From NCBI RefSeq assembly GCF_013122565.1, contig NZ_CP053258.1: a DNA stretch of 64,000 bases; one strand, 5' to 3'. The translations under genes and the position numbers were made by a program. Below the pieces are notes generated by a model. It was not told where the DNA came from. It ran no database searches and worked only from the letters and a program-made list of their open reading frames with translations. The stretch's first letter is position 1; each line of letters opens with the position of its first letter. Positions 8,298 through 36,252 of this stretch are shown piece by piece. The DNA is from Escherichia coli. Its GTDB lineage: Bacteria; Pseudomonadota; Gammaproteobacteria; Enterobacterales; Enterobacteriaceae.

Positions 8298-9013
8298 TGG
8301 GACAGCGCGCGTGAGCCTCTTTCGCGTGCGCTGTTGATCCACATCCGACTGCCGTTGAGCGCAATAAAGGTCAGGATGATGTACTCCAGAGACATGGCGT
8401 AAACGCCCTGAAGTGCAAAAATAACGACGCTAATCACGTTAATAATCACCCACAACAGCCAGTTTTCCACATACTTACGCGTCATCAGAATCATTGCCAC
8501 GATAGATAACACCATCATGCATGAATCCCAGAACGGAAAAGCGTCCGGTTGCAGTTCAGGCATCACAACCTGTAATCCTAATGCTTGCATGATCATGACT
8601 GCCACGCGGGTCAAAAATGCAAACACCGGATTGATAAATACCGTCATCAGACCAATCGAAACAACGCAAACCGCCAACCAGCTGAGCGCCTTCGGCAATG
8701 GCAACCAGCGAATTTTCAACTCCGCCTCGTTCTGACTGGTTTGTCGCGACCACGCATACCAACCGTAAATATTCGCGGCAAAGAAAAACACCTGTAATAG
8801 CAGGCTGGCATACAGCTGAATCTGAAAGAAAATAATGCCAAACAAAGTGACGTTGATCAGGCCAAAGAAGTAGTTGCTGATCTTCTCCAGACTGGCAAGG
8901 CCAATACACAGCAACCCGGCGATCGTGCCTACCGCTTCGATCCATGAGAGATCATAACCGCCTGCCCCTATTGGTATATGTACCAGGATATTCTGCACAC
9001 TAAAAAAATCCAT
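8294..9013 (-). CDS. pnuC: nicotinamide riboside transporter
   Basis: 239 aa polytopic membrane ORF directly downstream of nadA; its stop overlaps the zitB stop (shared TTAA). Confidence 0.9.
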
Positions 9014-9050: not shown

Positions 9051-10094
9051 TTATCCACGTAGTGTAGCCGCAAAATCCAGCATACGATTGAGCGGCACCA
9101 GCGCCCTCTCTCGCAGCCTCTCATCAACATGAACCTCGTGATTACTTCCTTCCTGTTCTAATGCCTCTGCGATAGCCTGAAGGCCATTCATGGCCATCCA
9201 CGGACAATGCGCGCAGCTGCGGCAGGTTGCACCCTCACCTGCGGTTGGTGCTTCCAGTAACTCTTTATCTGGCACCGCCTGCTGCATTTTGTAGAAAATA
9301 CCCCGATCGGTTGCCACAATAAGCCGCTGATGAGGCAATGCTTTTGCAGCAGCGATCAGTTGACTGGTGGAACCGACCGCATCCGCCATATCGACAATAG
9401 CTTGTGGTGATTCTGGATGCACCAGTATGGCAGCATCCGGGTATTCTTCTTGCAAGCGGGTTAACGCCTGAGTCTTAAATTCATCATGCACAATGCAGGC
9501 ACCCTGCCAGCATAAAATATCTGCGCCCGTCTGTTTTTGCACGTAACGCCCCAGATGTTTGTCGGGTGCCCAGATGATTTTTTCACCCAAACTATCCAGA
9601 TGATCAATAAGTTCGACGGCAATGCTTGAAGTTACCACCCAATCTGCCCGCGCTTTTACCGCAGCAGAAGTGTTGGCGTAGACGACGACAGTACGATCGG
9701 GATGGGCATCGCAAAATGCGTTAAATTCTTCAACAGGGCAGCCGAGATCCAGTGAACACTCAGCCTGAAGTGTCGGCATCAGAATTGTTTTTTCCGGACT
9801 GAGAATTTTGGCGGTTTCTCCCATAAATCTCACCCCAGCGACTAACAACGTAGAAGCGGGATGCTTTGCACCGAAGCGCGCCATTTCCAGAGAATCAGAA
9901 ATACAGCCACCGGTTTCTTCTGCCAGTTGTTGAATTTCGGGATCGGTATAGTAATGGGCAACCATCACCGCATTACGTTCTTTTAGCAGACGTTTTATCT
10001 TCTCGCGGTAATACGCTTTTTCATCAATGCTTAACGGCGTCGGCTTCGGGGGGAAAGGATAAATCGCCGTGTCTGGATCAAACATCACGCTCAT
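9051..10094 (-). CDS. nadA: quinolinate synthase A
   Basis: 347 aa ORF starting [22 protein letters not shown] with conserved Cys residues for the Fe-S cluster. Confidence 0.93.
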
Positions 10095-18913: not shown

Positions 18914-20482
18914 TTAGCGTGCCGGCTGAGTAGTCGTGGAAGACTGCTCAAAGTGATAGCGACCGGTTTTCAGGCTGCTTGGGCCGAGGCGTGCAAACTT
19001 GAACATTAAGAACAATTCTGCCACCAGGAACAGGGTATACAGGCCGCAAATCAGCACCATTGAGAAGATGAGATCGCCTGCGGTCAGTGACGAGTTCGCC
19101 ACAGCTGTCGGCAGCACTTCACCGATAGCCCACGGTTGGCGGCCATATTCAGCCACGAACCAGCCCGCTTCTACAGCAATCCACGGCAGCGGAATACCGT
19201 ACAGCGCGGCGCGCAGCAGCCATTTTTTCTCGCCAATGCGGTTGCGGATGACACTCCAGAAAGAGAGCGCGATGATTGCCAGCAGCAGGAAGCCACACGC
19301 CACCATGATACGGAACGCGAAGTACAGCGGCGCTACACGCGGAATGGAGTCTTTGGTTGCCTGTTGAATCTGAGCTTCAGTCGCATCAGCCACGTTTGGC
19401 GTATAGCGTTTCAGCAGCAGACCGTAACCGAGGTCTTTCTTCATGCTATTGAACTGGTCACGAACCGCCTGGTCGGTAGAACCAGAACGCAGTTGTTCGA
19501 GCAGAGAGTAAGCCTTCATCCCGTTACGAATGCGTTCTTCATGCTGCACCATCAGTTCTTTCAGGCCGATAACTGGAGTATCCACGGAACGCGTTGCAAT
19601 GATGCCCAGCGCGTAAGGGATCTGGATCGCAAATTTGTTCGTCTCCTCTTCCTGATCAGGAATGCCGAACAGAGTAAAGGCAGCAGGCGCAGGTTGCGTT
19701 TCCCACTCGGCTTCAATAGCAGCCAGTTTGGTTTTCTGCACGTCGCCCATTTCGTAACCAGATTCATCACCCAGAACAATAACAGACAGAACGGCAGCCA
19801 TACCGAAGCTGGCAGCGATAGCAAAGGAGCGTTTAGCGAAGGCGAAGTCACGACCTTTCAGCATATACCATGCGCTGATACCGAGGATGAACATCGCGCC
19901 AGTCACATAACCAGACGCTACAGTGTGAACGAATTTCACCTGAGCAACCGGGTTAAGCACCAGCTCGGAGAAGCTCACCATCTCCATACGCATAGTTTCA
20001 AAGTTGAAATCGGACGCGATTGGGTTTTGCATCCAGCCGTTCGCAACCAGAATCCACAGTGCGGACAGGTTTGAACCGAGCGCCACCAGCCAGGTGACAC
20101 ACATATGCTGAACTTTACCCAGACGATCCCAACCGAAGAAGAACAGACCTACAAAGGTGGATTCGAGGAAGAAGGCCATCAGACCTTCGATTGCCAGCGG
20201 CGCACCGAAGATATCCCCTACATAGTGGGAATAGTAAGACCAGTTAGTCCCGAACTGGAACTCCATAGTCAGACCGGTAGCCACACCCAGAGCGAAGTTG
20301 ATACCAAACAACTTGCCCCAGAACTTGGTCATATCTTTATAAATCTGTTTGCCGGAAAGGACGTAGACCGTTTCCATAATGGCCAGCAGGAACGCCATAC
20401 CGAGCGTCAGTGGCACAAAAAGGAAGTGGTACATCGCGGTCAAGGCAAACTGTAAGCGCGACAGTTCGACTATATCTAACAT
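18914..20482 (-). CDS. cydA: cytochrome bd-I ubiquinol oxidase subunit I
   Basis: ORF 18914..20485 trimmed to the second Met ([28 protein letters not shown]) after an aggag RBS; 522 aa. Confidence 0.95.
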
Positions 20483-21287
20483 CATGACTCCTTGCTCATC
20501 GCATGAAGACTCCGAGAGTGAACCCCGTTAGAAAGGGTCACACGCATGCCCCAATACAAAATTATTTGCTCGCCTCTATCGTTGCCATTTCATCAAAAGA
20601 GGAAAAGACAATGATAAAAAAGTTGCAAATATGTTAATGAATAAACCAAATTGATCCCGTAATTATATTACGCCGCAAAATCCTTACAATAAACAGGTTT
20701 TTATTGAGCAAATTTGCATTTTTCGACAGTGATCAATTTATAGCGAAATTGTCACGATCTCACCAATTTGATCTACGACAATTTATCGTGTTTTGCAGAT
20801 TTTTTTCAAGAATTAAAAATTGATTTATATCAAAACTAACCAAATATGTTAATTATGTATAAACCATAGATCATTAGTGATTTTATTGTTAATTTATTGT
20901 GAAATATTTATGCAACACAATTATTACAATGAAAAGGTATAGATAAAAAACCAGTGTTGTATTTAACAGAACCGCCTTATCCACTTTTTATAATACCAAT
21001 TGATTAGAGTAGCCAATTTGTTGCTATTTTACATAACATATTTTTATCAAAGTTAATTGATTGTTGCCTTTATGAGCACCGACCGTAAGCCCGTTATGTT
21101 ATTGTTTCATTGGTAATAATCACTTAAATGTATCGATGGAACAGGTATGACTTAGCGGGAGTGATTGTTTCTGAGTGAACAGGGGCCACTTTTGCCTGAT
21201 AAATGAAAAATGAGCGATTTTTGCAAGTTAGTTTTTCTATAGCCGTGTACGCTCAGCGCCTCGCTTGATTACAATGAGGTTGCTGCT
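20483..21287. promoter_or_regulatory. long AT-rich cydA upstream regulatory region, shared with the divergent 314-aa ORF
   Basis: About 800 bp non-coding, strongly AT-rich with several TTGAT/ATCAA-like half-sites; the cydAB promoter region is remembered as long and multi-promoter. Individual sites not resolved. Confidence 0.5.
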
Positions 21288-22232
21288 ATGAGTCCTGATA
21301 ATATCGGTTCGGCTGTCAATCGCTTCTCAGGTTGGCCATCTAATGATCCTCTAAAAACAGATAAAGAATCAACGACATCACCCGTGACAGTGCAGGTAAT
21401 AAAGATGATTGCCGCCATCCTTGACCCACATCGGATAGTCGTTGGAATCGATACACTTTATACAACGCAGCGCGAAACATTTACCTCAGAGAGTCAACAG
21501 CTCATTGAATCAGCATTGCAAACACTTCATGTGATGAATTTAAATAACCTGGAAACAAATCGCGATGAAGAAGGTCACTATCTGGCTTTTGAATATAACG
21601 TTGACACCTCTGACAGAATAACCGTTTCTGCTTACAATGAAAAAAATCCTGGCTGCTATGGCCAATGTCTTTTAATACAGGATGACGAAACAGACTTATT
21701 CAACCTGATAAAAATTAAAATTTTTGAAGCCAGGCATAATTATGTCGCTCAATTGATGAGCGATCCAGAATTTATGTTCAAATTCAGTTATAGCGCTCAA
21801 CAAAATAGATTAGAACCTCATCTTCTGGTTCCCGCTTATTTCCCTCTAAAAACAAACGAACCGGTTACGCAAGAGGATGTACTGTTACTTTATCGTTTCT
21901 TTAAAATGAATGATGATTTTAACAAATTAACATCAGATGAATACATGAGTATCCTGACACCTCTGATGAAGTGTGAGCGTAGCGTCCACGACAACAACAG
22001 GTATGTGACGGGCAAAGATACCCTTCTTCTGGACTATCCTCCTTCTGGTAACCAGATACATTTCCATGTTTTCCCTGACGAATCAGCAACACTAGTCCTT
22101 TATTTTTCAAACAATGACCTTGAATATTTCGTCTTTGAAAGAGATATTCCGAGCCAGTATCGCTTTTTCAAAATGTTTACCAATCTGGCACTGGTTATAG
22201 ATCAGTTAACCGAAGCCCATAAAATACTTTAA
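21288..22232 (+). CDS. hypothetical protein, 314 aa, AT-rich codon usage, no recognisable motif
   Basis: ATG at 21288 with a GAGG RBS 8 nt upstream; Ser/Thr/Pro-rich N-terminus; no family recognised by eye. Confidence 0.55.
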   Translation: MSPDNIGSAVNRFSGWPSNDPLKTDKESTTSPVTVQVIKMIAAILDPHRIVVGIDTLYTTQRETFTSESQQLIESALQTLHVMNLNNLETNRDEEGHYLAFEYNVDTSDRITVSAYNEKNPGCYGQCLLIQDDETDLFNLIKIKIFEARHNYVAQLMSDPEFMFKFSYSAQQNRLEPHLLVPAYFPLKTNEPVTQEDVLLLYRFFKMNDDFNKLTSDEYMSILTPLMKCERSVHDNNRYVTGKDTLLLDYPPSGNQIHFHVFPDESATLVLYFSNNDLEYFVFERDIPSQYRFFKMFTNLALVIDQLTEAHKIL

Positions 22233-22312
22233 TTTTCTATATATCCCTATGGCAAATATTGCTAAACAATGCCTGGGGATTAATTTTTATTACTCACGGA
22301 AAGATTTAAATA

Positions 22313-22735
22313 ATGATATCATCTCAGATCTCTTTCAGTACTCTTCCTGTCAATGCAACATACGCTTCAGAGACAACAGTTGACACACAAAAATTCTCTG
22401 ACATCCTCTACTCAGCGGGGTGTTCCCTAAAGGATATGGCTTATCTGAGCAGATGTCTGGCATCAATACACCCGACTATCGCCAAAAACATTTATGAAAC
22501 AGAAAATCTCAGCGATCAAAAATTACTGCATATTGATTGCCGTAGTACAAATGACATCAAGATAAATATCTTTTTTGGTCAGCAACGAGAAGGATTAATT
22601 GAAATTAGTTCTGACACAGTTATTTTTTCGATACTGTCTTCATTGATTGACTCCGCCATTTCTAAATTTCAACATCAAAACCCGGTTAACGGTTCAGTTA
22701 ATCCTGAACTATTGTATGAGGATTATACTGATTAA
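22313..22735 (+). CDS. hypothetical small acidic protein, 140 aa
   Basis: Co-directional ORF 80 bp after the 314-aa ORF, same AT-rich composition; weak RBS, so the start is uncertain. Confidence 0.45.
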   Translation: MISSQISFSTLPVNATYASETTVDTQKFSDILYSAGCSLKDMAYLSRCLASIHPTIAKNIYETENLSDQKLLHIDCRSTNDIKINIFFGQQREGLIEISSDTVIFSILSSLIDSAISKFQHQNPVNGSVNPELLYEDYTD

Positions 22736-23281
22736 ATCCACCCTGTCGCGAAAAATGGCCTGCGTTATTGCCAGACGTAATAAAACCTTTGATTAACGTT
22801 ACTCATACTGATAGCACCTTCATGTACCTCTCTTTTTTACGCAAATCAAAAGAGCTAACGAAGGTCATAATTCGCATGAATCATTAACCATTTGTTATTT
22901 TCAACATTACTTTTACATTAAGCAGAAATGAATGGTAGTGAAATTCGACTTAAATTTTATGAAATGCATTTACTTATGGCTAAACCCATATCACTAAAAT
23001 GCAAATTAGAAGTAGATCACAAATATCTCAATACACCAAATCAAGTTAATTTTAAAAATTTAACATTCATGACATTAGTTGACATAACACACTGAATTAA
23101 CATGGAAATTTAAAAACACACTTTAAACAATCATTTCCCGAAAGACATTTTGAAAATAGATCAATTGCAACATTACGGTCAGATAAAGACACTCCTGTGA
23201 TATTAAACCTGTGCCGTTATGAACGGCCATAAATACGACGTGTGTAACTTATTTTACTCTCTGTCTTACAAAGGATTACCC

Positions 23282-23731
23282 ATGAAGAAAGCAACACTTG
23301 TGATTGGCGTTATTGGCGCGGACTGCCATGCAGTAGGCAATAAAGTTCTGGACCGCGTTTTTAGCAACCACGACTTCAGAGTCATTAATCTGGGCGTAAT
23401 GGTCAGCCAGGACGAATATATTGATGCTGCCATTGAAACTGGCGCTGACGCGATTGTCGTCTCCTCTATCTATGGGCATGGCGATATCGACTGTCTGGGC
23501 ATGCGCGAACGCTGCATCGAGCGTGGACTGGGGGACATCCTGCTCTATGTGGGCGGTAACCTGGTGGTAGGAAAACATGACTTCGCTGACGTGGAAAACA
23601 AGTTCAAAGAGATGGGATTTGATCGCGTCTTTGCCCCAAGTCATGACTTAGAAGAGGTTTGTCAGCTGATGGCCCACGATATCAACCAACGTCATGACGT
23701 TGATACTCGCATTCTTGAAGAGGCAATCTGA
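23282..23731 (+). CDS. mamA: glutamate mutase sigma (S) subunit, B12-binding (methylaspartate mutase small subunit)
   Basis: ORF 23219..23731 trimmed to the ATG at 23282 after AAGGA; [24 protein letters not shown] carries the DxHxxG cobalamin-binding motif and aligns with clostridial GlmS/MutS. Confidence 0.85.
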
Positions 23732-25119
23732 TGCAAATCGTCTCTGTCGATATTGGATCGACGTGGACCAAAGCAGCCCTCTTCACCCGGGAGGGGGACG
23801 CGTTAACGTTGGTTAACCACGTACTGACCCCAACCACCACCCATCATCTGGCGAAGGGGTTTTTCTCCAGCCTGAACCAGGTGTTAAACGTAGATAATGC
23901 CCTCCCCCTGTTAAACAGCGGTGAGGTTGCATTGAAGTATTCCTCCTCTGCCAAAGGTGGGCTGGCGGTTGCCGCAATGGGATTGGTGCCTTCTATCACC
24001 CTGGAAACCGCGAAAGTAACCGCTCACTCTGCGGGTGCTAAAATTGCGCAATATTACGCCTACAAGCTGAACCGCCGTGATATCCAGGCACTGGAAGAAA
24101 CGCAGCCCGATATTCTCTTGTTCACCGGCGGCACCGACGGCGGAGAAGAAAGCTACGGACTGAATAACGCCCGTGTGCTGGCAGAATCCAAACTCGACTG
24201 CGCCATTATTTATGCCGGAAACCGGGATATTCAGGACGAGGTGCAGGAGATCCTCGGACATAAAGACCTGACCATCGTCGACAACGTTCTGCCCGATCTT
24301 GACCATCCGAACCCTTTAGCCGCACGCCAGGCTATCTGCGACATATTCCTTAAACGCATCGTTAAAGGGAAAGGGCTGGATGTCATTGTTGATAAAACAG
24401 GCGAAGAACCAATGCCGACACCATGGACGGTCTTTGAACTGGTTAAGGCAATCAGTAACGTCGATCACAGCTGGAAAGAGTTCATGCTGATCGACATGGG
24501 CGGCGCAACCACCGATGTCTATTCCGCCTGTGCCAACACGCTCTCGCCCGACACCGTTTTACACGGCGTACCGGAACCCTTCGTAAAACGGACGGTGGAA
24601 GGCGATCTGGGAATGCGCGTCTCGGCAATGGTGGTTGGTGAAAGTGCGAAAGAGTTAGTCAATGTAAATTTTGCTCAGCAACCCGCACAGCTGGACGCTT
24701 TTTATCATTACCTCCGTCATTTAGTCGCTCATCCCGACTACTTACCCGCGAATGCAGAAGAAAAATATTTCGATACCGTCCTGGCCGGACTGTGTGTGGG
24801 TTATGCCACCGAAAGACATGCGGGCACCAAAAAAGAGGTCTGCACCTGCGTCGGCAATGTCGATTTACAAATGGGACGTGACCTGACAACCGTGCGTAAA
24901 GTCGTCGGATCCGGCGGATGGCTCTCGCGTGCCAGTCAGTTCGATATGCATCACTGGTTGAAATACCGCGAGTTAAACGACGACGGTAAACGCATTCTCT
25001 TACCGACCGAATTTGAATATTACCGCGATTCCCGGGGGCTATTACCACTGCTGGCAAACGTCGCCAGAGTCGATCCGCTGGCCGCCGCGCGCACCAGTAT
25101 TCAATGCTTAACCCTATAA
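23731..25119 (+). CDS. glmL: glutamate mutase L protein (GlmL/MutL, putative chaperone/reactivase)
   Basis: 462 aa, starts [18 protein letters not shown] (actin-like ATPase N-terminus); start overlaps the S-subunit stop (tgATG); sits between S and E as in clostridial operons. Confidence 0.8.
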   Translation: MQIVSVDIGSTWTKAALFTREGDALTLVNHVLTPTTTHHLAKGFFSSLNQVLNVDNALPLLNSGEVALKYSSSAKGGLAVAAMGLVPSITLETAKVTAHSAGAKIAQYYAYKLNRRDIQALEETQPDILLFTGGTDGGEESYGLNNARVLAESKLDCAIIYAGNRDIQDEVQEILGHKDLTIVDNVLPDLDHPNPLAARQAICDIFLKRIVKGKGLDVIVDKTGEEPMPTPWTVFELVKAISNVDHSWKEFMLIDMGGATTDVYSACANTLSPDTVLHGVPEPFVKRTVEGDLGMRVSAMVVGESAKELVNVNFAQQPAQLDAFYHYLRHLVAHPDYLPANAEEKYFDTVLAGLCVGYATERHAGTKKEVCTCVGNVDLQMGRDLTTVRKVVGSGGWLSRASQFDMHHWLKYRELNDDGKRILLPTEFEYYRDSRGLLPLLANVARVDPLAAARTSIQCLTL

Positions 25120-25137
25120 CAATTAAGGCTGCAATCA

Positions 25138-26583
25138 ATGGAACTTCGAAATAAGAAATTAACCCATGACGAATTCATGACCGAGCGGCAACAGGTACTG
25201 AAAACCTGGGAAACCGGCAAGGATGTTGAAAATTTTGAAGATGGCGTTAAATACCAACAAACCATTCCTGAGCATAAACGCTTCTCTCTCGCCCTGCTGA
25301 AAGCAGACAAGGAAGGTAAAACCCTTAGCCAACCGCGCGCAGGTGTGGCGCTGATGGACGAACACATCGAACTACTGAAAACACTACAAGAAGAGTGCGA
25401 TCTGCTGCCAAGCACCATCGATGCATATACCCGTCTGAATCGGTACGAAGAAGCGGCTGTAGGGATTAAAAAATCCATCGAAGCCGGAACCTCTAAACTG
25501 AACGGTTTACCGGTAGTTAACCACGGAGTCGCAGCTTGCCGTCGCCTCACCGAAACCCTGCAAAAACCGCTACAGATCCGCCACGGCACGCCAGATGCGC
25601 GTCTGCTGGCTGAAATCTCGATGGCCAGTGGCTTTACCAGTTACGAAGGCGGCGGCATTTCCTACAACATTCCGTATGCCAAACGCGTAACGCTGGAAAA
25701 ATCGATCCGCGACTGGCAGTACTGCGACCGTTTAATGGGGATGTATGAAGAACACGGGATCCGCATCAACCGCGAACCATTTGGCCCACTAACGGGTACG
25801 CTGATCCCGCCGTTTATCTCGCACTCTATCGCCATAATCGAAGGCTTGCTGGCGCTGGAACAGGGTGTGAAATCTATCACCGTTGGTTATGGCCAGGTCG
25901 GCAGCCTGACGCAGGATGTTGCGGCGATCCAGTCTCTGCGTGAACTTGCACATGAATACTTTCAGAGCTATGGCTATACCGACTATGAATTAAGTACCGT
26001 GTTTCACCAGTGGATGGGCGGCTTTCCGGAAGACGAATCGAAAGCGTTCGCTATTATCTCCTGGGGCGCAGCCGTCGCGGGGATGTCTGGTGCCACCAAA
26101 GTCATCACCAAAAGTCCGCACGAAGCCTGGGGTATCCCAACTGCCGCTGCCAACATTCAGGGGCTGAAAGCCTCCCGCCAGATGCTCAACATGGTCAATG
26201 AGCAGAAATTCCCGCCATGCCCTGCGGTTGAACTGGAAATTGAACTGATTAAGAGCGAGGTTCGCGCGGTACTGAATAAAGTGTTCGAACTGGGTAATGG
26301 TGATATTGCGCGCGGTACGGTGCTGGCATTTGAAGCGGGCGTACTGGATGTGCCGTTTGCGCCAGCCGCCTGCAACGCGGGCAAAATTCTTCCGGTCCGT
26401 GACAACACCGGCGCGATACGCGTACTGGAAGCCGGAGCCGTTCCATTGCCAAAAGATATTCTCGACCTCCACCACGATTACGTTGCGGAACGCGCACGCT
26501 GTGAAGGACGCCAACCGACATTCCAGATGGTTGTAGATGACATCAATGCTGTATCCCACAGTAAATTAATAGGAAGACCATAA
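25138..26583 (+). CDS. mamB: glutamate mutase epsilon (E) catalytic subunit (methylaspartate mutase large subunit)
   Basis: 481 aa, starts MELRNKKLTHDEFMTERQQVLKTW; conserved blocks PRAGVALMDEHIELL, HGTPDARLLAEI, FHQWMGGFPEDESKAF match clostridial GlmE. Confidence 0.88.
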   Translation: MELRNKKLTHDEFMTERQQVLKTWETGKDVENFEDGVKYQQTIPEHKRFSLALLKADKEGKTLSQPRAGVALMDEHIELLKTLQEECDLLPSTIDAYTRLNRYEEAAVGIKKSIEAGTSKLNGLPVVNHGVAACRRLTETLQKPLQIRHGTPDARLLAEISMASGFTSYEGGGISYNIPYAKRVTLEKSIRDWQYCDRLMGMYEEHGIRINREPFGPLTGTLIPPFISHSIAIIEGLLALEQGVKSITVGYGQVGSLTQDVAAIQSLRELAHEYFQSYGYTDYELSTVFHQWMGGFPEDESKAFAIISWGAAVAGMSGATKVITKSPHEAWGIPTAAANIQGLKASRQMLNMVNEQKFPPCPAVELEIELIKSEVRAVLNKVFELGNGDIARGTVLAFEAGVLDVPFAPAACNAGKILPVRDNTGAIRVLEAGAVPLPKDILDLHHDYVAERARCEGRQPTFQMVVDDINAVSHSKLIGRP

Positions 26584-27824
26584 TGAAAATAAAACAGGCC
26601 CTGTTCACCGCTGGCTATTCCTCATTCTATTTCGATGACCAGCAGGCGATAAAAAACGGAGCGGGTCACGACGGCTTTTTTTATACCGGGGAGCCAGTAA
26701 CACAGGGGTTTAACGCCGTACGTCAGGCCGGGGAGTGCGTATCGGTACAGTTGATTCTGGAAAACGGCGCGGTCGCTGTAGGTGACTGTGCTGCCGTACA
26801 GTATTCCGGGGCAGGTGGTCGCGATCCACTGTTCCTCGCAGAGCACTTTATTCCGTTCCTCAACGACCATATTAAGCCATTACTGGTAGGCCGCGATGTG
26901 GATACTTTCCTGCCGAATGCCCGTTTCTTCGACAAATTGCGTATTGACGGCAACTTGCTGCATACCGCCGTGCGCTACGGATTATCACAGGCGCTGCTTG
27001 ATGCTACCGCGCTGGCAACCGGCCGTCTGAAAACTGAAGTGGTCTGTGATGAATGGCAGTTGCCACGCGTGGCGGAATCCATTCCATTATTTGGTCAGAG
27101 CGGCGACGATCGATATATCGCCGTCGATAAGATGATCCTTAAGGGCATCGACGTGCTGCCCCATGCGCTGATTAATAACGTCGAAGAGAAGCTGGGCTTT
27201 AAAGGTGAAAAACTGAGCGAATATGTCCGCTGGTTGTCGGATCGCATTCTAAGCAAGCGCACCAGCGCGCGCTACCACCCTACCCTGCACATCGATGTAT
27301 ACGGCACTATCGGTCTGATCTTCGATATGGATCCGCTCCGCTGTGCGCAATACATCGCCAGCCTGGAAAAAGAAGCGCAAGGCCTGCCGCTCTACATCGA
27401 AGGGCCGGTCGATGCCGGTAACAAGCCCGATCAAATTCGCCTGCTGACCGCGATTACCAAAGAGCTGACGCGCCTCGGTTCCGGCGTGAAAATTGTGGCC
27501 GATGAATGGTGTAACACCTACCAGGATATTGTTGATTTCACTGATGCTGCCAGTTGTCACATGGTGCAAATCAAAACCCCGGATCTGGGCAGTATTCACA
27601 ACATCGTCGATGCGGTTCTTTACTGCAACAGCCACAGCATGGAAGCGTACCAGGGCGGCACCTGCAATGAAACTGATGTCAGTGCCCGCACCTGTGTCCA
27701 CGTCGCCCTTGCCGCTCGCCCTATGCGTATGCTGGTAAAACCAGGGATGGGCTTTGACGAAGGCCTCGATATCGTCTTCAACGAAATGAATCGTACTATC
27801 GCGCTGTTGCAGGCTAAGGATTAA
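26583..27824 (+). CDS. 3-methylaspartate ammonia-lyase (beta-methylaspartase)
   Basis: 413 aa, start overlaps the E-subunit stop (taATG); blocks CAAVQYSGAGGRDPLF, FGQSGDDRY, HMVQIKTPDLG, CNET match clostridial methylaspartase (enolase superfamily). Confidence 0.88.
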   Translation: MKIKQALFTAGYSSFYFDDQQAIKNGAGHDGFFYTGEPVTQGFNAVRQAGECVSVQLILENGAVAVGDCAAVQYSGAGGRDPLFLAEHFIPFLNDHIKPLLVGRDVDTFLPNARFFDKLRIDGNLLHTAVRYGLSQALLDATALATGRLKTEVVCDEWQLPRVAESIPLFGQSGDDRYIAVDKMILKGIDVLPHALINNVEEKLGFKGEKLSEYVRWLSDRILSKRTSARYHPTLHIDVYGTIGLIFDMDPLRCAQYIASLEKEAQGLPLYIEGPVDAGNKPDQIRLLTAITKELTRLGSGVKIVADEWCNTYQDIVDFTDAASCHMVQIKTPDLGSIHNIVDAVLYCNSHSMEAYQGGTCNETDVSARTCVHVALAARPMRMLVKPGMGFDEGLDIVFNEMNRTIALLQAKD

Positions 27825-27827
27825 CAA

Positions 27828-29198
27828 ATGGCTCGTTCTTTTAAAGTCTTATCGCCAACGGCAATCCTCGGGTATGGATTCCCGGAAGAGAGCTTCCGCA
27901 AAGCGATGGCAGAATCGCCCGATCTGATCGCCGTTGATGCCGGCTCTTCCGATCCAGGCCCCCACTACCTCGGGGCAGGCAAACCGTTTACCGATCGCGC
28001 AGGGGTCAAGCGCGATCTGCGCTATATGATCACCGCAGGCGTGCAAAATAATATACCGGTGGTGATCGGAACGGCTGGCGGTTCTGGTGCCGCACCACAC
28101 CTGGAGTGGTGCCGAGAAATAATTCATGAGATTGCCCGGGAAGAGCACCTCTCGTTCTCGATGGCGTTGATCCCGGCAGACGTTGACAAAGCCATCGTCC
28201 ACCAGGCGCTGGATAACGGCAAAATCACGGCGCTGGATTTTGTCCCGCCGTTAACCCACGACGCGATTGACGAAAGTACGTATATCGTTGCGCAAATGGG
28301 CATCGAACCCTTCCAGCGGGCTCTGAAAGAAGGCGCGCAAGTGGTGCTGGGCGGGCGCGCTTACGACCCGGCCTGCTTTGCTGCGCTCCCGATCATGCAA
28401 GGCTTTGATGAAGGTCTGGCGCTGCATTGTGGGAAAATCCTTGAGTGCGCAGCAATCGCCGCAACGCCCGGCTCAGGCTCTGACTGTGCGATGGGCATCA
28501 TTGATGACAACGGCTTTACGCTGAAGACATTTAATCCGAAGCGTAAATTTACCGAAACGTCAGCAGCTGCACACACACTGTATGAAAAATCCGATCCCTA
28601 CTTCCTGCCAGGACCTGGCGGCGTGTTGAACCTGAAAGGCTGCACATTTAAAGCAGTCAATGACGGCGAAGTCTACGTCAGCGGTTCTAAGCATGAAGAA
28701 ACGCCGTATGCCCTGAAACTGGAAGGTGCACGACGGGTGGGCTTCCGCTGTCTGACCATCGCCGGAACGCGCGACCCGATCATGATCGCCGGGATCGATA
28801 AAATCATCGATGAAGTCAAAATCAGCGTTTCGCGTAACCTGTCGCTTGACGATGACAGCATTCGCATCAATTTCCACCTGTACGGCAAAAACGGGGTGAT
28901 GGGCGACCATGAACCGATGCAAACTACCGGGCATGAGCTGGGGATTGTCCTTGATGTAGTTGCACCGACCCAGGAAATTGCCAACAGCGTTTGCTCGCTG
29001 GTGCGCTCTACCATGCTGCACTACGGCTATGAAAACCGCATCGCTACCGCAGGCAACCTGGCGTTCCCGTTCTCCCCTTCTGATATCCAGGGCGGGCCGG
29101 TATACGAATTTTCCATATATCACCTGATTGAAGCCAACGACGCTCTGCGTTTTGATTTCCATATTGAACAGGTGACGCCAGAAGGAGTTCAGGTATGA
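27828..29198 (+). CDS. uncharacterised protein, 456 aa (tentatively AtuA-like/DUF1446-type; family not verified)
   Basis: ATG at 27828 with AAGGA 7 nt upstream, 3 bp after the methylaspartase stop; Gly-rich, no cofactor motif recognised by eye. Confidence 0.6.
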   Translation: MARSFKVLSPTAILGYGFPEESFRKAMAESPDLIAVDAGSSDPGPHYLGAGKPFTDRAGVKRDLRYMITAGVQNNIPVVIGTAGGSGAAPHLEWCREIIHEIAREEHLSFSMALIPADVDKAIVHQALDNGKITALDFVPPLTHDAIDESTYIVAQMGIEPFQRALKEGAQVVLGGRAYDPACFAALPIMQGFDEGLALHCGKILECAAIAATPGSGSDCAMGIIDDNGFTLKTFNPKRKFTETSAAAHTLYEKSDPYFLPGPGGVLNLKGCTFKAVNDGEVYVSGSKHEETPYALKLEGARRVGFRCLTIAGTRDPIMIAGIDKIIDEVKISVSRNLSLDDDSIRINFHLYGKNGVMGDHEPMQTTGHELGIVLDVVAPTQEIANSVCSLVRSTMLHYGYENRIATAGNLAFPFSPSDIQGGPVYEFSIYHLIEANDALRFDFHIEQVTPEGVQV

Positions 29199-29512
29199 AA
29201 CAGTCAATTGTCTCACTGGCGCAAGTCATTCGTTCGAAAAATGCCGGTCCTTACGAACTGGTTTTAGATATTTTATTTAAAACGAAAGAAAACTATGAGC
29301 GAGTTAAATCATCAGGGCAATTAACCCCAGAACTGATTGCGCGCTTATATCATGTTGAACCTGACTTTATTCATCGTATTGTCTGGTTTGATCCTTCTAA
29401 CGCAGTAAAAATCGTCATGCCACGAGATATTATCTCCGGGAATGTAGGTGACAATGATGTCTATGGTGCACAGCAACATGCACCTTTATTAAATATGAGT
29501 TTCGATTTGTAA
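29195..29512 (+). CDS. uncharacterised small protein, 105 aa, translationally coupled to the preceding ORF
   Basis: ATG at 29195 overlaps the upstream stop (ATGA); no recognisable motif. Confidence 0.55.
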   Translation: MKQSIVSLAQVIRSKNAGPYELVLDILFKTKENYERVKSSGQLTPELIARLYHVEPDFIHRIVWFDPSNAVKIVMPRDIISGNVGDNDVYGAQQHAPLLNMSFDL

Positions 29513-29672
29513 AAATCCGAACACTTTTAGCCAACTGACATCCCATCACTTATTGCAGTTCAACACTTCAGCTATTTGTAAGGTTGTAATAGCAGGTAGA
29601 TGCCTGAGTCTCTATTCAGGCATCTACTTCTCCTGATTCTGATTTATCGCCGTGCACCTGATGGAGGAAAAA

Positions 29673-30953
29673 ATGAAGAAAATAAGTTTAACCACGATGA
29701 TTCTTTTGGCGCTGGTACTTGGAATGATTATCGGCGTAGTGCTCAATAACACTGCTTCACCGGAAACCGCAAAACTCTATGCGCAAGAAATATCGATATT
29801 CACGACGATTTTCTTACGACTGATAAAAATGATTATCGCTCCGTTAGTGGTCTCTACCCTGGTGGTAGGTATAGCTAAAATGGGCGATGCCAAAGCCCTT
29901 GGTCGTATTTTTTCTAAAACACTTTTTTTATTTATTTGCGCCTCATTGCTGTCAATTGCCTTAGGCTTGATAACAGTAAATTTCTTCATGCCAGGCACAG
30001 GAATTAATTTTGTTGCACACGGAGCCGAAACCACCGGAGTGGTCGCGTCAGAACCCTTTACGCTAAAAGTATTTATTTCGCATGCTTTCCCCACCAGCAT
30101 TGTCGATGCCATGGCGCACAATGAAATTTTGCAAATCGTGGTGTTCTCAATTTTCCTCGGCTGTAGCCTGACGGCGATTGGCGAGAAAGGCAGCGCCATC
30201 GTTCACGCCTTAGATTCGCTGGCACATGCCATGTTAAAGCTCACTGGCTACGTCATGCTCTTCGCTCCCCTGACCGTATTCGCCGCTATTTCAGCATTGA
30301 TTGCTGAACGAGGACTGGCAGTTATGGTGAGCGCCGGGATCTTTATGGGTGAATTTTATTTCACCATGTTGTTACTTTGGGTACTGCTTATCGGTCTGGC
30401 CATCGTTTATGTCGGCCCCTGCATCAGACGCCTGACCCGCGCCCTTTCGGAACCCGCCCTGCTGGCATTTACCACATCCAGTTCTGAAGCGGCTTTTCCG
30501 GGAACGCTTGAAAAACTGGAGCAATTTGGCGTTTCCCCCAAAATTGCCAGCTTTGTCTTACCCATTGGCTACTCATTTAATCTCGTTGGATCAATGGCCT
30601 ACTGCTCCTTCGCCACAGTTTTCATCGCCCAGGCCTGCAATATCCATTTATCCATCGGTGAGCAAATCACCATGCTGTTGATCCTGATGTTGACCTCGAA
30701 AGGAATGGCTGGCGTACCACGCGCCTCAATGGTGGTTATCGCCGCCACGCTCAACCAGTTCAATATTCCGGAAGCAGGGCTGATCTTGCTGATGGGCGTT
30801 GATCCGTTCCTTGATATGGGGCGTTCCGCGACAAACGTCATGAGCAACGCAATGGGCGCTGCGATGGTGAGTCGGTGGGAAGGCGAACATTTCGGCGAGG
30901 GCTGTCGGGGTAAAGCATTAAAACCCAATGAATCGAACGTTGCTCTGCCCTGA
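29673..30953 (+). CDS. dicarboxylate/amino acid:cation symporter (GltP/DctA family), candidate glutamate or C5-dicarboxylate transporter
   Basis: ORF 29652..30953 trimmed to the ATG at 29673 after GGAGGA; polytopic, with the family serine-rich motif (TTSSSEAAFPGTLEKLE) as in GltP. Confidence 0.8.
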   Translation: MKKISLTTMILLALVLGMIIGVVLNNTASPETAKLYAQEISIFTTIFLRLIKMIIAPLVVSTLVVGIAKMGDAKALGRIFSKTLFLFICASLLSIALGLITVNFFMPGTGINFVAHGAETTGVVASEPFTLKVFISHAFPTSIVDAMAHNEILQIVVFSIFLGCSLTAIGEKGSAIVHALDSLAHAMLKLTGYVMLFAPLTVFAAISALIAERGLAVMVSAGIFMGEFYFTMLLLWVLLIGLAIVYVGPCIRRLTRALSEPALLAFTTSSSEAAFPGTLEKLEQFGVSPKIASFVLPIGYSFNLVGSMAYCSFATVFIAQACNIHLSIGEQITMLLILMLTSKGMAGVPRASMVVIAATLNQFNIPEAGLILLMGVDPFLDMGRSATNVMSNAMGAAMVSRWEGEHFGEGCRGKALKPNESNVALP

Positions 30954-31060
30954 GGGGGATCTTAAGCAATCAGAAGCCAATGACTACGCATTTTTATAAG
31001 CCGGATCATGAAGTTAGACGGCAATTAAGTAACACTAACGTTTAAGGTGAAAAGTGAAAT

Positions 31061-32713
31061 ATGTCCAAACCATTTATCTGGCAAGAACCGTTTCTACAAA
31101 ATAAAGACGGTACAGAATATACATTAATTAGCGATCAACATATTACAGTAACGGAATTAGACGGCGAAGAAGTGATAAAAATCGCTCCTGAAGCATTAAC
31201 GCTGCTTGCCCGGCAGGCATTTTATGAAGCCTCTTTTTTCTTACGTTCCGCTCATTTGCAACAGGTCGCCAGCATTCTTAACGATCCGCAGGCCAGTAGT
31301 AATGATAAATACGTTGCGTTGCAGTTATTACGTAATGCTGAAGTCTCAGCAAAAGGGGTATTACCCAACTGTCAGGATACCGGCACCGCAACTATTGTTG
31401 CCAGGAAAGGGCAACAGATATGGACCGGAGGTAACGACGCTGAAGCCTTAAGCAAAGGCATTTACACCACTTTCCAGGAAAATAATCTGCGCTTTTCACA
31501 AAATGCGCCGCTGGATATGTATACCGAAGTCAATACGCAAACCAATCTCCCGGCGCAGATTGATATCAGCGCCGTCGCTGGTGATGAGTACCATTTTCTC
31601 TGTGTTAATAAAGGGGGCGGCTCCGCCAATAAAGCCACGCTTTATCAGGAAACCAAATCCTTATTGCAACCAGAAAAACTGACCGCATTTTTAATCGAAA
31701 AAATGAAATCGCTGGGCACCGCTGCCTGCCCGCCTTACCACATCGCCTTTGTCGTCGGAGGGCTTTCAGCCGATCAAACCTTAAAAGTTGCCAAGCTGGC
31801 TTCTACGAAATATTACGACAATTTGCCCACCAGCGGAAACGAGCAGGGACAAGCATTCCGTGATATTGAGCTGGAAAAAGTGATGCTCGAGGCCAGTCAG
31901 CAATTTGGTATTGGTGCGCAATTTGGGGGTAAATATTTCGCTCATGATATTCGCGTCATTCGTCTGCCGCGTCACGGTGGCTCCTGCCCGATAGCTATGG
32001 CGCTCTCCTGTTCAGCCGATCGCAATATCAAAGCAAAAATTAACAAGCACGGTATCTGGCTGGAAAAACTCGAACACAATCCGGGGCAATATATTCCAGC
32101 CTCACTATGGGAAGAAAATCACGCGCAACATGTACAACTGGATCTAAACCGTCCGTTGCGTGACGTGATGCAGGATCTCGCCAGATTACCGGTAGGTACC
32201 CGCGTGTCGTTAAGTGGTCCCATCGTAGTGGCGCGCGATATCGCCCACGCCAAAATAAAAGCGCGGCTGGATAGCGGCGAATCGATGCCGGAGTACCTGA
32301 AGCATCATATTGTCTATTACGCTGGCCCGGCGAAAACACCGGAGAACATGGCCTGCGGTTCACTAGGTCCAACCACGGGCGGTCGAATGGACGGTTATGT
32401 CGATACCTTCCAGGCTGCTGGCGGCAGTCTGGTGATGTTATCGAAAGGTAACCGCAGCCAGCAGGTCACCGATGCCTGTCACAAACATGGTGGCTTCAAT
32501 CTGGGAAGTATTGGCGGTGCAGCTGCGTTACTGGCGCAAGAATATGTCAAAAGTCTGCGTTGCCTGGAATACCCGGAGCTGGGTATGGAAGCGGTGTGGA
32601 TGATGGAAGTGGAAAATCTGCCCGCATTCATCCTGGTAGATGATAAAGGCAATAATTTCTTTAGTCAGTTTGAGCAGCAACACCGCTGCGCCAGTTGCCC
32701 TGCGGGACATTAA
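31061..32713 (+). CDS. class I (Fe-S) fumarate hydratase family protein, FumA/FumB paralogue; candidate mesaconase
   Basis: 550 aa, full-length similarity to FumA as remembered (blocks [55 protein letters not shown]); context suggests mesaconate hydration. Confidence 0.85.
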
Positions 32714-32722
32714 GGAAAATGA

Positions 32723-33325
32723 ATGGAAGCGCGAATTTCAACTGAACGGCATGTGCAGCGCCAGCAGAAATTGAAGGAACAGGTCGATACGCGCGTCGCG
32801 GCGGCGATAGAGAAAAAAGGGATCTTGATTGTTTTCACCGGCAATGGCAAAGGGAAATCCACTGCCGCGTTTGGTACGGTGACGCGCGCGGTGGGTCATG
32901 GCAAAACGGTGGGGGTTGCGCAGTACATCAAGGGGCAATGGGACAACGGCGAATACAACCTTCTCCAGCCGCTCGGGGTTGAGTTTCATATTATGGGAAC
33001 CGGTTTTACCTGGGAGACACAGAACCGGCAAGCGGATATCGACGCGGCGAAAGAGGTCTGGTCGGAAAGCAAACGGATGCTGGCTGACAAGCGTTACGAC
33101 TTAGTGGTGCTTGATGAGCTGACCTATATGCTGGCTTACCATTATCTGGATACCGAAGAAGTGATCGCTTCTCTGCAAAACCGCCCGGCACAACAAAGTG
33201 TCATTGTCACCGGACGCGGTTGCCACAGTCAGATATTAAAAATGGCGGATACGGTCAGCGAAATCCGCCCCGTCAAACATGCTTTTGATAACGGCATTCA
33301 GGCCCAGCCGGGTATCGACTGGTAA
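32723..33325 (+). CDS. cob(I)alamin adenosyltransferase, BtuR/CobA-family paralogue
   Basis: 200 aa with P-loop GNGKGKSTAAFG and full-length similarity to BtuR as remembered; AAGGA RBS; last gene of the operon. Confidence 0.85.
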   Translation: MEARISTERHVQRQQKLKEQVDTRVAAAIEKKGILIVFTGNGKGKSTAAFGTVTRAVGHGKTVGVAQYIKGQWDNGEYNLLQPLGVEFHIMGTGFTWETQNRQADIDAAKEVWSESKRMLADKRYDLVVLDELTYMLAYHYLDTEEVIASLQNRPAQQSVIVTGRGCHSQILKMADTVSEIRPVKHAFDNGIQAQPGIDW

Positions 33326-33328
33326 TAA

Positions 33329-33356
33329 CTGCGCCTGGCATCCCGCCAGGCGCAGG
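33329..33356. terminator. bidirectional terminator between the B12-operon end and the convergent LysR gene
   Basis: Perfect 11-bp inverted repeat ctgcgcctggc / gccaggcgcag around a 5-nt loop, followed by gtttt. Confidence 0.7.
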
Positions 33357-33358
33357 TT

Positions 33359-34264
33359 TTACATCTCCTGCGGTACGACCGATTTCGCCAGCAACCATTC
33401 ACGAAATTGCTGCAAGTGCGGCGAGTCAGACTTCTCTTCCTGCCACGTCATAATAAAACGATTACCGGTACGAATAGGCACATCACAGGGAATCACCATA
33501 TCGCCACTATCCAAATCATGTTGAATAGCGAACCGTGGTAACAGCGCCACGCCGAGATTAGAGCGCACGGCGGCAATCAACATTGAAAGCAAATCGAAAC
33601 GTGGCCCGTTGTTGACCAGCGGACTGCTAACGCCAGATAAAGCAAACCACTCTTCCCAGCCAGTAATACGGGTGCTTTGATGCAGAAGTGGTAACTCAGT
33701 AAGCAGTTCTGCCACTGACAGTTTTTGATCGGACATTGCAAGCAAACTGCCGCTGCATACCGGCAAAATCTCCTCTTCAAAGAGATATTCTACTTCCGCC
33801 CAGGGCGCGCAAAAATTTTCGCGCATAATGACAGCATCGTACTCCCGATTAAGAAAATCGCCGTTATTAGCTAAAGAATGAATATTAACAATAATATCGG
33901 GATGTAACTTTGTGAATTCATGTAAATTTGGGATTAACCAGTGGGTACTAAAAGTAGGATTAACGGCAAGTTCAATAACCTGAACCGTAGGCTGCCAGGT
34001 CATAATGGTATTGGTATCGCGTTCCAGCTTATTTAATGTTTCTTTTACTATCCCCAGGTAATACTTCCCTGCATCATTAAGAAAAATACGTTTTTTAGAG
34101 TGTGAAAATAACGGAGTACGTAAAAATTCCTCCAGCGCACTTACTTGTCTGAATACTGCACTTTGGGTTAACGCTAACTCCTCTGCCGCTCTGGTATAAC
34201 TTTCATGACGTGCGACGACCTCAAAAGTCACCAGCAGTTCCGTTTTAGGTATTTTTCCTCGCAT
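33359..34264 (-). CDS. LysR-family transcriptional regulator
   Basis: ORF 33359..34294 trimmed to the Met after a ggaagg RBS (MRGKIPKTELLVTFEVVARHESYTRAAEELALTQSAVFRQVSALEE is a typical LysR HTH); about 301 aa. Confidence 0.85.
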   Translation of the reverse strand: MRGKIPKTELLVTFEVVARHESYTRAAEELALTQSAVFRQVSALEEFLRTPLFSHSKKRIFLNDAGKYYLGIVKETLNKLERDTNTIMTWQPTVQVIELAVNPTFSTHWLIPNLHEFTKLHPDIIVNIHSLANNGDFLNREYDAVIMRENFCAPWAEVEYLFEEEILPVCSGSLLAMSDQKLSVAELLTELPLLHQSTRITGWEEWFALSGVSSPLVNNGPRFDLLSMLIAAVRSNLGVALLPRFAIQHDLDSGDMVIPCDVPIRTGNRFIMTWQEEKSDSPHLQQFREWLLAKSVVPQEM

Positions 34265-34854
34265 AATGCCTTCCGTGAAAAAATAACAATTCAAAAAATT
34301 ATTTTATAAAAAACAGTAGCGCTAATGAATATCATAATTCAAATAAACAAACCAGTCAGCTATATGTCTAACCAGGAAAATAAAGTGACAATAATCCTAA
34401 AACAGGAATTTCACCTCAGTTATCCGCATGCAATGCTTTAAAGCCATTATTGCAAGAATATTATTCATATACATGAATATACTCTAAATAAGTCGAGTTG
34501 GAGGAAGGGAACAAATAATGAATTTCCAGAAGCTTACATAAGTAAGTGACCTGGGTGAGCGAACATCGATGCAGCACATGCAACTTGAATTATGACAAGT
34601 ATACAATGATAAATTTAGATACCCTATGTTATATATTATCTATGTCCGGTTAAATTGAATGAGTCATGGCCTTCAAAGACATCGCAAAAGATAATTTCTC
34701 TTTAACAATAAGCCAGATTTACCACTTGTAAAAATTGCTATCGCCACATACACTACGCGCGTTTTCTTTCCCTTTTGCTGGCTGCTGACCGGAAAGACAA
34801 AATTACCCTCGCAATACAGGGGGTTGTTTAACGTCTATATTTCAGGACAGCGTT

Positions 34855-36252
34855 ATGCATCATCTTTCAAGGCTTGATAAAGCCTTTCTGCGCAAAGGGA
34901 TCCAACTTTCCCGCGCCAACAATATTGTTTCATTATCTCGTCCATCAGGTGTCAGTGCCCGCGTACTGCTGCCAGACGAACTGCCGCTGGAAGAAAAAGC
35001 AGTAACACAACTGCTTGATTTTGCAGAAGTGAAGCTACCAGACCACCCAGGTTATGTACGCCAGACGTGTGCGACGCCAGATTTTCATCCCGGCAATGGC
35101 GTCCCCGTTGGCGCGGTGGTAGCCTCAACGCCGGATTTAGTCATTCCCGCCGCCATCGGCACCGATATTTCTTGTGGCATGCGGCTGCTGACGACCGGAA
35201 TAACACTTGAGCAAGCCGAAGCGCATAAAGACGTCATCACTCAGCGGTTAACGCAAGTGTTACTGCAAAATGAGCGCGATGTTCCGTTATCTGCACGAGC
35301 GTTCACCGCGCTTTTTGATGGCGGGCCGGCAGATTGCATGTCGGCCTTGCCATCAGCAGGTCTCTGGACACGCACGAATATCCCCCGAATGGTACAAGAG
35401 ATTGACCGCTGCATTGGGCTGAACGAGCATAAAAGTCATTCGCGTTATGCCCCACCCGCCCTGCTGGCAACGGACCGCGCATTACTCCGCGACCCTTGTC
35501 TGGGTACGCCGGGTTCAGGTAATCATTTTATTGAACTTCAGGTAGTTGATAGCGTGATCGATCGCCATGTAGCCTGGCAACAAGGGCTGAAAACAGGCGA
35601 TATCGTGGTGATGATCCATAGTGGATCGCGAGATGTCGGCTTTTACGTCGGACGACGCTGGACGGACCGTGCCCGCGCAGACTGGCCCGCTGGGCATAAA
35701 CATCCACAAAGCGGGTTATATGGTCTGGCTGGTGGACTGGCGGAGGAATATCTACAAGCGATGGGAATGGCGGCGCGTTACGCATGGTTAAATCGCGTGA
35801 CCATTACGGAAATGGTGCGCGTATGTTTTGCCGATTTATTCCATCAGGATGAATCACATCTGGTGGTGGATGTGCCGCATAACATCATCCTTCGCGAGCA
35901 TGAGATGAATATTCATCGCAAAGGCGCAACACCGGCACGTGCGGGCGATCTGGCGTTAATCCCCGGTTCAATGGGCGATTATTCGTGGCTTGCGGTAGGT
36001 TGCGGCAACCCGGAGTGGTTGTGGTCATGCAGTCACGGAGCAGGACGCAGCCAGCGTCGGCAGGCCATGCGCGCACACGCGACTGAAGAGTCAACGCTGC
36101 CGTGGCAATGCGTAACACTGCGTGAAGAACGGCGTATTGAGGAAGCGCCAGCTGCTTATAAAGATATTGGTCCGGTTATCGAAGCCCAACAAGAAGCTGG
36201 ATTAATTCAGCCAGCGGTCAGATTTCGACCGTGGTTAACGTTTAAGGCATAA
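34855..36252 (+). CDS. RtcB-family RNA ligase paralogue (465 aa, N-terminally extended)
   Basis: Motifs typical of RtcB: PDFHPGNG, GTDISCGM (cf. GVDIGCGM), and HGAGR near the C-terminus; divergent from the LysR gene across 590 bp. Confidence 0.75.
   Translation: MHHLSRLDKAFLRKGIQLSRANNIVSLSRPSGVSARVLLPDELPLEEKAVTQLLDFAEVKLPDHPGYVRQTCATPDFHPGNGVPVGAVVASTPDLVIPAAIGTDISCGMRLLTTGITLEQAEAHKDVITQRLTQVLLQNERDVPLSARAFTALFDGGPADCMSALPSAGLWTRTNIPRMVQEIDRCIGLNEHKSHSRYAPPALLATDRALLRDPCLGTPGSGNHFIELQVVDSVIDRHVAWQQGLKTGDIVVMIHSGSRDVGFYVGRRWTDRARADWPAGHKHPQSGLYGLAGGLAEEYLQAMGMAARYAWLNRVTITEMVRVCFADLFHQDESHLVVDVPHNIILREHEMNIHRKGATPARAGDLALIPGSMGDYSWLAVGCGNPEWLWSCSHGAGRSQRRQAMRAHATEESTLPWQCVTLREERRIEEAPAAYKDIGPVIEAQQEAGLIQPAVRFRPWLTFKA

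Follow-up and report, generated by a model that had tools for sequence, protein, structure and literature searches.

Whether two adjacent, AT-rich open reading frames (ORFs) between cydA and the glutamate mutase operon of Escherichia coli are real genes, and if so of what kind, is the question raised by the locus described here. The DNA analyzed (the window) is a stretch of 64,000 nucleotides from E. coli, all positions are given in window coordinates, and the two reading frames are called ORF1 and ORF2 (Table 1). About one fifth of E. coli genomes carry the pair, which sits in one of the most intensively studied regions of E. coli O157:H7 (alleles WP_001310136.1 for ORF1 and WP_000613119.1 for ORF2), and literature searches found no published study or functional annotation of either ORF. 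An earlier interpretation made from the letters alone (the sequence-only reading) had described an AT-rich ORF pair 80 bp apart in an AT-rich stretch of ~2.7 kb; the coordinates, the sizes and the extent of this stretch are all correct. Our preferred answer, held with slightly better than even confidence, is that ORF1 and ORF2 are genuine orphan genes restricted to Escherichia, AT-rich, near-silent and under purifying selection, and that their place between cydA and the glm/methylaspartate operon predates the divergence of E. coli from E. albertii.

Comparison of E. coli with E. albertii firmly identifies ORF1, by its pattern of substitution, as a selected coding sequence. The two versions are identical in length and share 64% amino-acid and 77% nucleotide identity, and the 22.8% nucleotide divergence includes no indel and no stop codon. 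The 215 differences comprise 73 synonymous changes at 196 sites and 142 non-synonymous changes at 746 sites (binomial p = 5e-6), with an excess of differences at third codon positions (p = 6e-4). When the substitutions were placed at random, only 0.04% of trials left the frame open (8 stops on average), and the two other forward frames of ORF1 contain 25-37 stops. Within E. coli, lengths were constant across allele groups (945 nt for ORF1 and 423 nt for ORF2), and no gap opening was found between alleles in 1368 coding bp vs. six in the 546-bp ORF2-glmS spacer at equal divergence. If indel rates were equal, ~15 coding gaps would be expected (Poisson p ~3e-7). The open frame, the synonymous excess and the absence of indels together argue that ORF1 is maintained as a protein-coding gene. 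The ratio of non-synonymous to synonymous substitution rates (omega) of ORF1 was 0.26-0.46 between distinct E. coli allele groups, which are at most 9% diverged, and seven synonymous and six non-synonymous changes were present within E. albertii.

The coding case for ORF2 is weaker, the probability of meeting no stop under random substitution being 0.11. Its omega between E. coli allele groups was 0.18-0.70 (alleles up to ~10% diverged). Against E. albertii, omega was 0.42 in a core of residues ~41-100 and 0.6-0.8 in the tails. ORF2 is probably also a selected coding sequence, with constraint concentrated in the core and tails that are nearly neutral. A special nucleotide-level element in the ORF2 core was considered and rejected, since the sliding identity there (0.79-0.84) was no higher than in the N-terminal third of ORF1. 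In some E. coli, single-base frameshift alleles of the ORF2 C-terminus (22690-22735; P0009, P0010, and P0014) give a protein of 160 aa in which the last ~15 residues are swapped for a 35-residue tail, and the acidic YEDYTD end is not universal.

The pair has aged with its neighbors. Between the window and locus L010, the synonymous divergence (dS) of ORF1 and ORF2 was 0.18-0.19, and that of neighboring genes was 0.05-0.18 (cydB, 0.14; glmE, 0.13; the ammonia-lyase gene, 0.18). Non-synonymous divergence (dN) was 0.068-0.087 for the pair vs. 0.000-0.015 for the neighbors, that is, 10-70 times higher (omega ~0.35-0.5). ORF1 and ORF2 share the history of their neighbors but tolerate or favor many more amino-acid changes. 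In E. albertii, two loci (L016 and L017) have the gene order cydA-ORF1-ORF2-glmS, and two others (L002 and L014) have cydA, ORF1, a dead ORF2, a 258-aa outer-membrane-like gene and sucD, without the glm operon. ORF1 has 314 aa in 12 of the 14 listed E. albertii variants. ORF2 carries two in-frame stops (L016) or frameshifts (L002) while ORF1 stays intact.

The sequence-only reading had taken the AT-rich composition as a sign of horizontal acquisition. The AT-rich, accessory character holds, the pair being present in 21% of complete genomes, and recent import does not: the E. albertii synteny, a decayed version of this gene order in Escherichia sp. MOD1-EC7003, a dS in line with cydB, glmE and the ammonia-lyase gene, and the absence of a donor indicate that the arrangement did not arrive recently. 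No donor or mobile-element hallmark was found for the pair, and collections of phages, plasmids and viral contigs held no true relatives; three "plasmid" hits were records of 0.7-4.9 Mb with chromosomal sequence. Judged by synteny, the cydA-ORF1-ORF2-glm arrangement is ancestral in the genus and was later repeatedly replaced or eroded.

Mapping across 5426 complete E. coli genomes detected ORF1 and ORF2 in 1135 genomes each, ORF2 always alongside ORF1, a number that matches the 1131 genomes with glmE of the adjoining island. The pair is single-copy and occupies one fixed chromosomal site with metabolic genes on its flanks, and among 30 evenly sampled E. coli hits intact length was retained by ORF1 in 29 and by ORF2 in 28. 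Two protein searches, covering 5.8 billion and 1.84 billion sequences, recovered orthologs only in Escherichia and Shigella (E. coli, Shigella, E. albertii, and cryptic Escherichia). A scan of one genome per species for 100,044 species found only E. albertii, Escherichia sp. MOD1-EC7003 and two metagenome bins. The bins, labeled Collinsella sp. and Citrobacter sp. (L012 and L013), have an ORF1 that is 92-93% identical to that of E. coli and are probably mis-binned E. coli contigs.

Other E. coli strains have other cargo between sucD and cydA, namely mngR-mngA-mngB in K-12-type genomes or a tetratricopeptide repeat (TPR) protein in strain A26, and homology to the window ends 373 bp (K-12 type) or 638 bp (A26) upstream of cydA. 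With ORF1 plus the 258-aa gene of E. albertii and the ~15-kb glutamate-fermentation island of the window, at least four cargoes have occupied this interval (~20860-36350 in the window). The interval is a replacement hotspot, in which the pair forms the boundary of the glutamate-fermentation island toward cydA. ORF1 and ORF2 would now persist as part of one of these alternative cargoes.

The low GC content of the pair is shared by the surrounding DNA. Every 400-bp segment from ~20400 to 23400 has a GC content of 0.27-0.42, and the flanks have 0.49-0.57 (~0.52). GC content overall and at third codon positions (GC3) was 0.388 and 0.37 for ORF1 and 0.369 and 0.33 for ORF2; GC3 in neighboring genes was 0.49-0.64. 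In a published analysis of strain EDL933 under 11 conditions, four tags between glmS and cydA were at or near background (PMC4048457, Tables S2-S4), a silence that describes the glmS-cydA interval as a whole and is not assigned to ORF1 or ORF2 individually. Across those samples cydA ranged from 2 to 212 reads per kilobase per million (RPKM), and the glm operon was also at or below 3 RPKM (PMC4048457). Near-background tags beside a variable cydA fit silencing of AT-rich DNA and do not fit co-regulation with cydA. The near-absence of transcription under ordinary conditions would most probably reflect silencing by a nucleoid protein of the H-NS type. The locus shares high AT content and transcriptional silence in the wild type with H-NS-silenced xenogeneic DNA and differs from it in having no sign of recent foreign origin.

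The sequence-only reading had also suggested that the pair shares oxygen-responsive control with cydA through their common upstream region, and the EDL933 values speak against this. The consensus for the oxygen regulator FNR, TTGATTTATATCAA, is the sole zero-mismatch match in the window and lies 455 bp from the ORF1 start, inside the part of the spacer that is common to all E. coli; K-12-type genomes have TTGATAAATATCAA. Closer to ORF1, a conserved block is preceded by a stretch (21074-21208) with only 63-64% identity between E. coli and E. albertii, a contrast from which the block is probably the promoter and 5' leader of ORF1. No strong sigma-70 consensus was found upstream of ORF1, and promoter and terminator predictions did not exceed the counts expected from shuffled sequence. 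Co-transcription of ORF1 and ORF2 is possible. Identity of the ORF2-glmS spacer to E. albertii is 52-62% and climbs to 77-86% near glmS, and the glm operon promoter probably lies in this glmS-proximal part. No structured RNA or riboswitch was detected in the AT-rich DNA with Rfam at E <= 1.

Several observations weigh against the interpretation of ORF1 and ORF2 as maintained orphan genes. ORF1 has a frameshift in the type strain of E. albertii, the ORF1 of Escherichia sp. MOD1-EC7003 is broken by a ~120-bp element and indels with most of ORF2 deleted, and truncated copies of both ORFs occur in Shigella dysenteriae. Both genes are dispensable in some lineages, the omega values of ~0.4-0.6 are close to those of relaxed genes, and H-NS binding is deduced from AT content alone. 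The AlphaFold models described below are unreliable, and the description of ORF1 and ORF2 as alpha/beta and of a binding protein draws on secondary-structure prediction and on the lack of any match to a catalytic family. The lineage-specific inactivations, to which the ORF2 C-terminal frameshift alleles can be added, are also what favors a different explanation, in which the ORFs are decaying annotation survivors in silenced AT-rich DNA and have no present function; expression of the interval near zero, an omega that is high relative to neighboring genes and a nucleotide divergence about that of the flanking spacers point the same way. The sequence-only reading had named such decay as what would refute it; disrupted homologs do exist elsewhere, and the ORF1 frame is under selection. 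We regard the leftover explanation as quite improbable given an ORF1 frame that 215 substitutions have left open (P(no stop) = 0.0004), its synonymous excess and enriched third positions, the lack of indels in both ORFs while the adjacent spacers gather them, and the intact length of nearly all sampled E. coli copies. For ORF2 in E. albertii only, the same explanation is plausible.

No family could be assigned to either protein. Searches of Pfam, NCBIfam, PADLOC, PHROGs and PDB sequences with single sequences and profiles returned nothing below E ~0.05, consistent with the statement of the sequence-only reading that neither protein has a placeable motif. The only non-Escherichia hit, P0062 (E 1.5e-5), was a TolB-like repeat protein in which a 30-residue motif matched three times and was dismissed as chance. 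AlphaFold2 models built from 7- and 10-sequence alignments had a predicted local distance difference test (pLDDT) score of 46.8 and 41.1, which is low confidence. Foldseek against AFDB50 recovered only the family itself, everything else having a template modeling (TM) score <= 0.41 and E >= 0.016, and no fold was assigned. The predicted secondary structure is mixed alpha/beta, with Ser/Thr-rich N-termini that were modeled without confidence. The isoelectric points (pI) are 4.82 for ORF1 and 4.65 for ORF2 (15.6 kDa), and neither protein contains a hydrophobic stretch of sufficient length to act as a signal peptide or cross a membrane. ORF1 and ORF2 would be soluble, acidic, cytoplasmic alpha/beta proteins.

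A weak resemblance was detected between the two proteins. Profile comparison of ORF2 with ORF1 by hhalign gave E 0.014-0.038 for ORF1 residues 61-185 and 0.22 for residues 186-314. Smith-Waterman alignment of E. albertii ORF1 with E. coli ORF2 gave p 0.001-0.02, all other combinations were null (p 0.27-0.97), and alignment of one half of ORF1 with the other was also null. ORF2 may be weakly colinear with ORF1 residues 28-165, an unproven hint of paralogy.

The arrangement of two co-oriented, adjacent genes, the second smaller and acidic, in AT-rich accessory DNA had led the sequence-only reading to propose a two-component module, and one form of this proposal is a toxin-antitoxin, toxin-immunity or small anti-phage (abortive-infection) pair. 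Unequal sizes and a location in variable DNA are shared with type II toxin-antitoxin and two-gene defense modules. The resemblance goes no further: no toxin, antitoxin, immunity or defense family was matched in PADLOC (no hit at E <= 1), Pfam or NCBIfam, the 80-bp gap and the sizes of 314 and 140 aa are atypical, and the pair is absent from phages and true plasmids. It is a single-copy pair at a fixed locus with no mobile-element genes, and its neighbors are cydAB, tol-pal and metabolic genes rather than a defense island. The loss of the partner is tolerated as well. The intact ORF1 beside an ORF2 with stops or frameshifts in E. albertii argues against a toxin/antidote pair, in which an intact toxin would always be accompanied by its protective partner; some E. 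coli combine ORF1 with a frameshift allele of ORF2, and MOD1-EC7003 has lost both. A toxin or defense function is extremely improbable, and the pair drops from the list of candidate defense and toxin modules.

The second form of the proposal is a type III secretion substrate with its partner, either an effector with a chaperone or two effectors. Some features serve as leads only: an AT-rich composition and a distribution limited to E. coli and E. albertii recall known effector genes, the N-termini of both proteins are rich in Ser, Thr, Pro and Asn and were modeled without confidence, and ORF2 is similar in size and charge to a class I chaperone, so that a larger protein is followed by an acidic one of ~15 kDa as in effector/class I chaperone pairs. 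These leads meet several differences from such pairs. No effector or chaperone family was matched in Pfam or PDB sequences, and no fold matched in comparisons that used low-confidence models. The locus is outside any prophage or pathogenicity island, the large-then-small order with an 80-bp gap is unlike that of effector/chaperone pairs, and decay has struck the small partner and spared the large one, as with the dead ORF2 beside ORF1 in E. albertii. Carriers include many isolates from varied sources that are not enterohemorrhagic E. coli (EHEC), and the helix-helix-three strands-helix order predicted for ORF2 in its low-confidence model is not chaperone topology. We consider a secretion role very improbable.

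The neighborhood of the pair raises the possibility of a role in glutamate fermentation, in which ORF1 and ORF2 would modulate or regulate the downstream B12-dependent glutamate mutase pathway. The methylaspartate cluster of E. coli O157:H7, including fumD (ECs0757), was described by Kronen & Berg 2015 (PMC4682846), and other reported carriers of the glutamate-fermentation cluster include Klebsiella, Citrobacter, Salmonella and Yersinia (PMC4682846). ORF1 and ORF2 are contiguous with this cluster at the cydA-proximal edge of the same cargo, are co-distributed with it in E. coli in nearly equal genome numbers, precede glmS on the same strand in both E. coli and E. albertii L016, and are separated from the operon by no terminator-like site. 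The pair and the cluster have, in contrast, been lost independently of each other: E. albertii L002-type strains hold ORF1 without the operon, and MOD1-EC7003 holds an intact operon with both ORFs destroyed. No ORF1 or ORF2 homolog was found in any search in the other enterobacteria reported to have the glm cluster (PMC4682846); homologs occur only in Escherichia, and ORF1 and ORF2 are not described as pathway members. The island has its own LysR regulator, cobA-like adenosyltransferase and GlmL, and no DNA-binding domain was detected in ORF1 or ORF2 by Pfam searches. That ORF1 can persist without the glm operon and the operon without the ORFs, and that homologs are restricted to Escherichia, argues against an obligatory role in glutamate fermentation, and we judge an accessory role unlikely.

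Under the preferred reading of Escherichia-restricted orphan genes, selection would be clear on ORF1 and weaker on ORF2, where it would act on the core of ~60 residues. ORF1 would need neither ORF2 nor the glm operon to function, since it is intact in E. albertii lineages that have lost both. A tentative extension, plausible but short of probable, is that ORF1 is a non-enzymatic binding or adaptor protein made only on a niche cue once silencing is relieved, and that ORF2, which would be neither antidote nor chaperone, assists it as a partner that can be dispensed with. A further suggestion, which we find unlikely, is that ORF1 stands at the origin of a protein family of its own, perhaps with a novel fold, which was born in Escherichia (de novo from the AT-rich DNA beside cydA, or by divergence past recognition) and kept throughout the divergence of E. 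coli and E. albertii for a niche role, with ORF2 as a partly redundant derivative. The weak similarity of ORF2 to ORF1 28-165 (hhalign E 0.014-0.04; Smith-Waterman p ~0.001 in one allele combination) hints at this relationship.

ORF1 and ORF2 resemble taxonomically restricted E. coli orphan genes in having no relatives outside the genus, a high AT content with poor codon adaptation, an accessory distribution, very low transcription and a raised dN/dS with the frame kept. Two features expected of such genes are the absence of homologs outside a narrow lineage and selection on the reading frame, and the pair has both, the second strongly in ORF1 and more weakly in ORF2. Unlike typical orphan genes, the pair is unusually old and positionally stable, with an order conserved between E. 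coli and E. albertii and a dS equal to that of its core neighbors; it has no mobile-element hallmarks, and its proposed H-NS silencing is read from AT content. The retention of ORF1 since the E. coli-E. albertii split is a clean case for orphan-gene persistence under silencing. Production of the proteins in the gut or during anaerobic use of glutamate would make them possible niche factors of EHEC-type lineages; otherwise they are ordinary hypothetical proteins.

Table 1. Features in and around the ORF1-ORF2 locus (window coordinates).
Feature	Position	Strand	Remarks
cydA	18914-20485	-	divergent from ORF1; 802-bp spacer between them
AT-rich cydA upstream region	20486-21163		GC 0.27-0.40; first ~375 bp common to all E. 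coli
FNR consensus TTGATTTATATCAA	20820-20833		perfect match; 335 bp from cydA ATG, 455 bp from ORF1 ATG
Conserved block before ORF1	21164-21287	+	82-89% identity, E. coli vs. E. albertii
Shine-Dalgarno-like GAGG	21276-21279	+	8 nt before ORF1 ATG; AAGG or GAGG in E. albertii
ORF1	21288-22232	+	314 aa, ATG start; exact database match WP_171459635.1 ("hypothetical protein"); acidic, soluble
ORF1-ORF2 spacer	22233-22312	+	80 bp; terminator-like site not found
ORF2	22313-22735	+	140 aa, ATG start; exact database match WP_171459636.1 ("hypothetical protein"); acidic, soluble
ORF2-glmS spacer	22736-23281	+	AT-rich, 546 bp; first ~150 bp unconstrained, conserved near glmS

The minus-strand side of the window comprises tolQRA-ybgC-ybgE-cydX-cydB-cydA. 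On the plus strand ORF2, which ends 546 bp upstream of the glmS start (23282), is followed by glmS, glmL, glmE, the methylaspartate ammonia-lyase gene, an AtuA-family gene, a DUF4387 gene, a dicarboxylate symporter gene and fumD, and beyond fumD are a cobA-like adenosyltransferase gene, a LysR regulator gene and an RtcB-family gene, then sucD. The mechanically called glmS ORF begins at 23219 (170 aa, 23219-23731), and RefSeq begins at the ATG at 23282 (149 aa); AAAGGA precedes the latter, and the 21 codons upstream of it are probably untranslated.

The island end near sucD includes the cobA-like cob(I)yrinic acid a,c-diamide adenosyltransferase (32723-33325) and the GcvA/LysR-type regulator (33359-34294, minus strand), and the RtcB-family RNA ligase-like gene (34855-36252) is an odd partner for a fermentation cluster. 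In MOD1-EC7003 (L015), two inverted copies of the ~120-bp element (8347-8469 and 9087-9206; 87.5% identical) break up what remains of ORF1 and take the place of most of ORF2, and they have the appearance of a miniature inverted-repeat transposable element (MITE) or an enterobacterial repetitive intergenic consensus (ERIC) sequence. In one assembly (L003; GCA_002230845.1, NLPL01000018.1) the cydA-ORF1-ORF2 region is divided into dozens of short ORFs, with cydA and tolQ fragments of 45-83 aa, which suggests an error-rich assembly or heavy pseudogenization.

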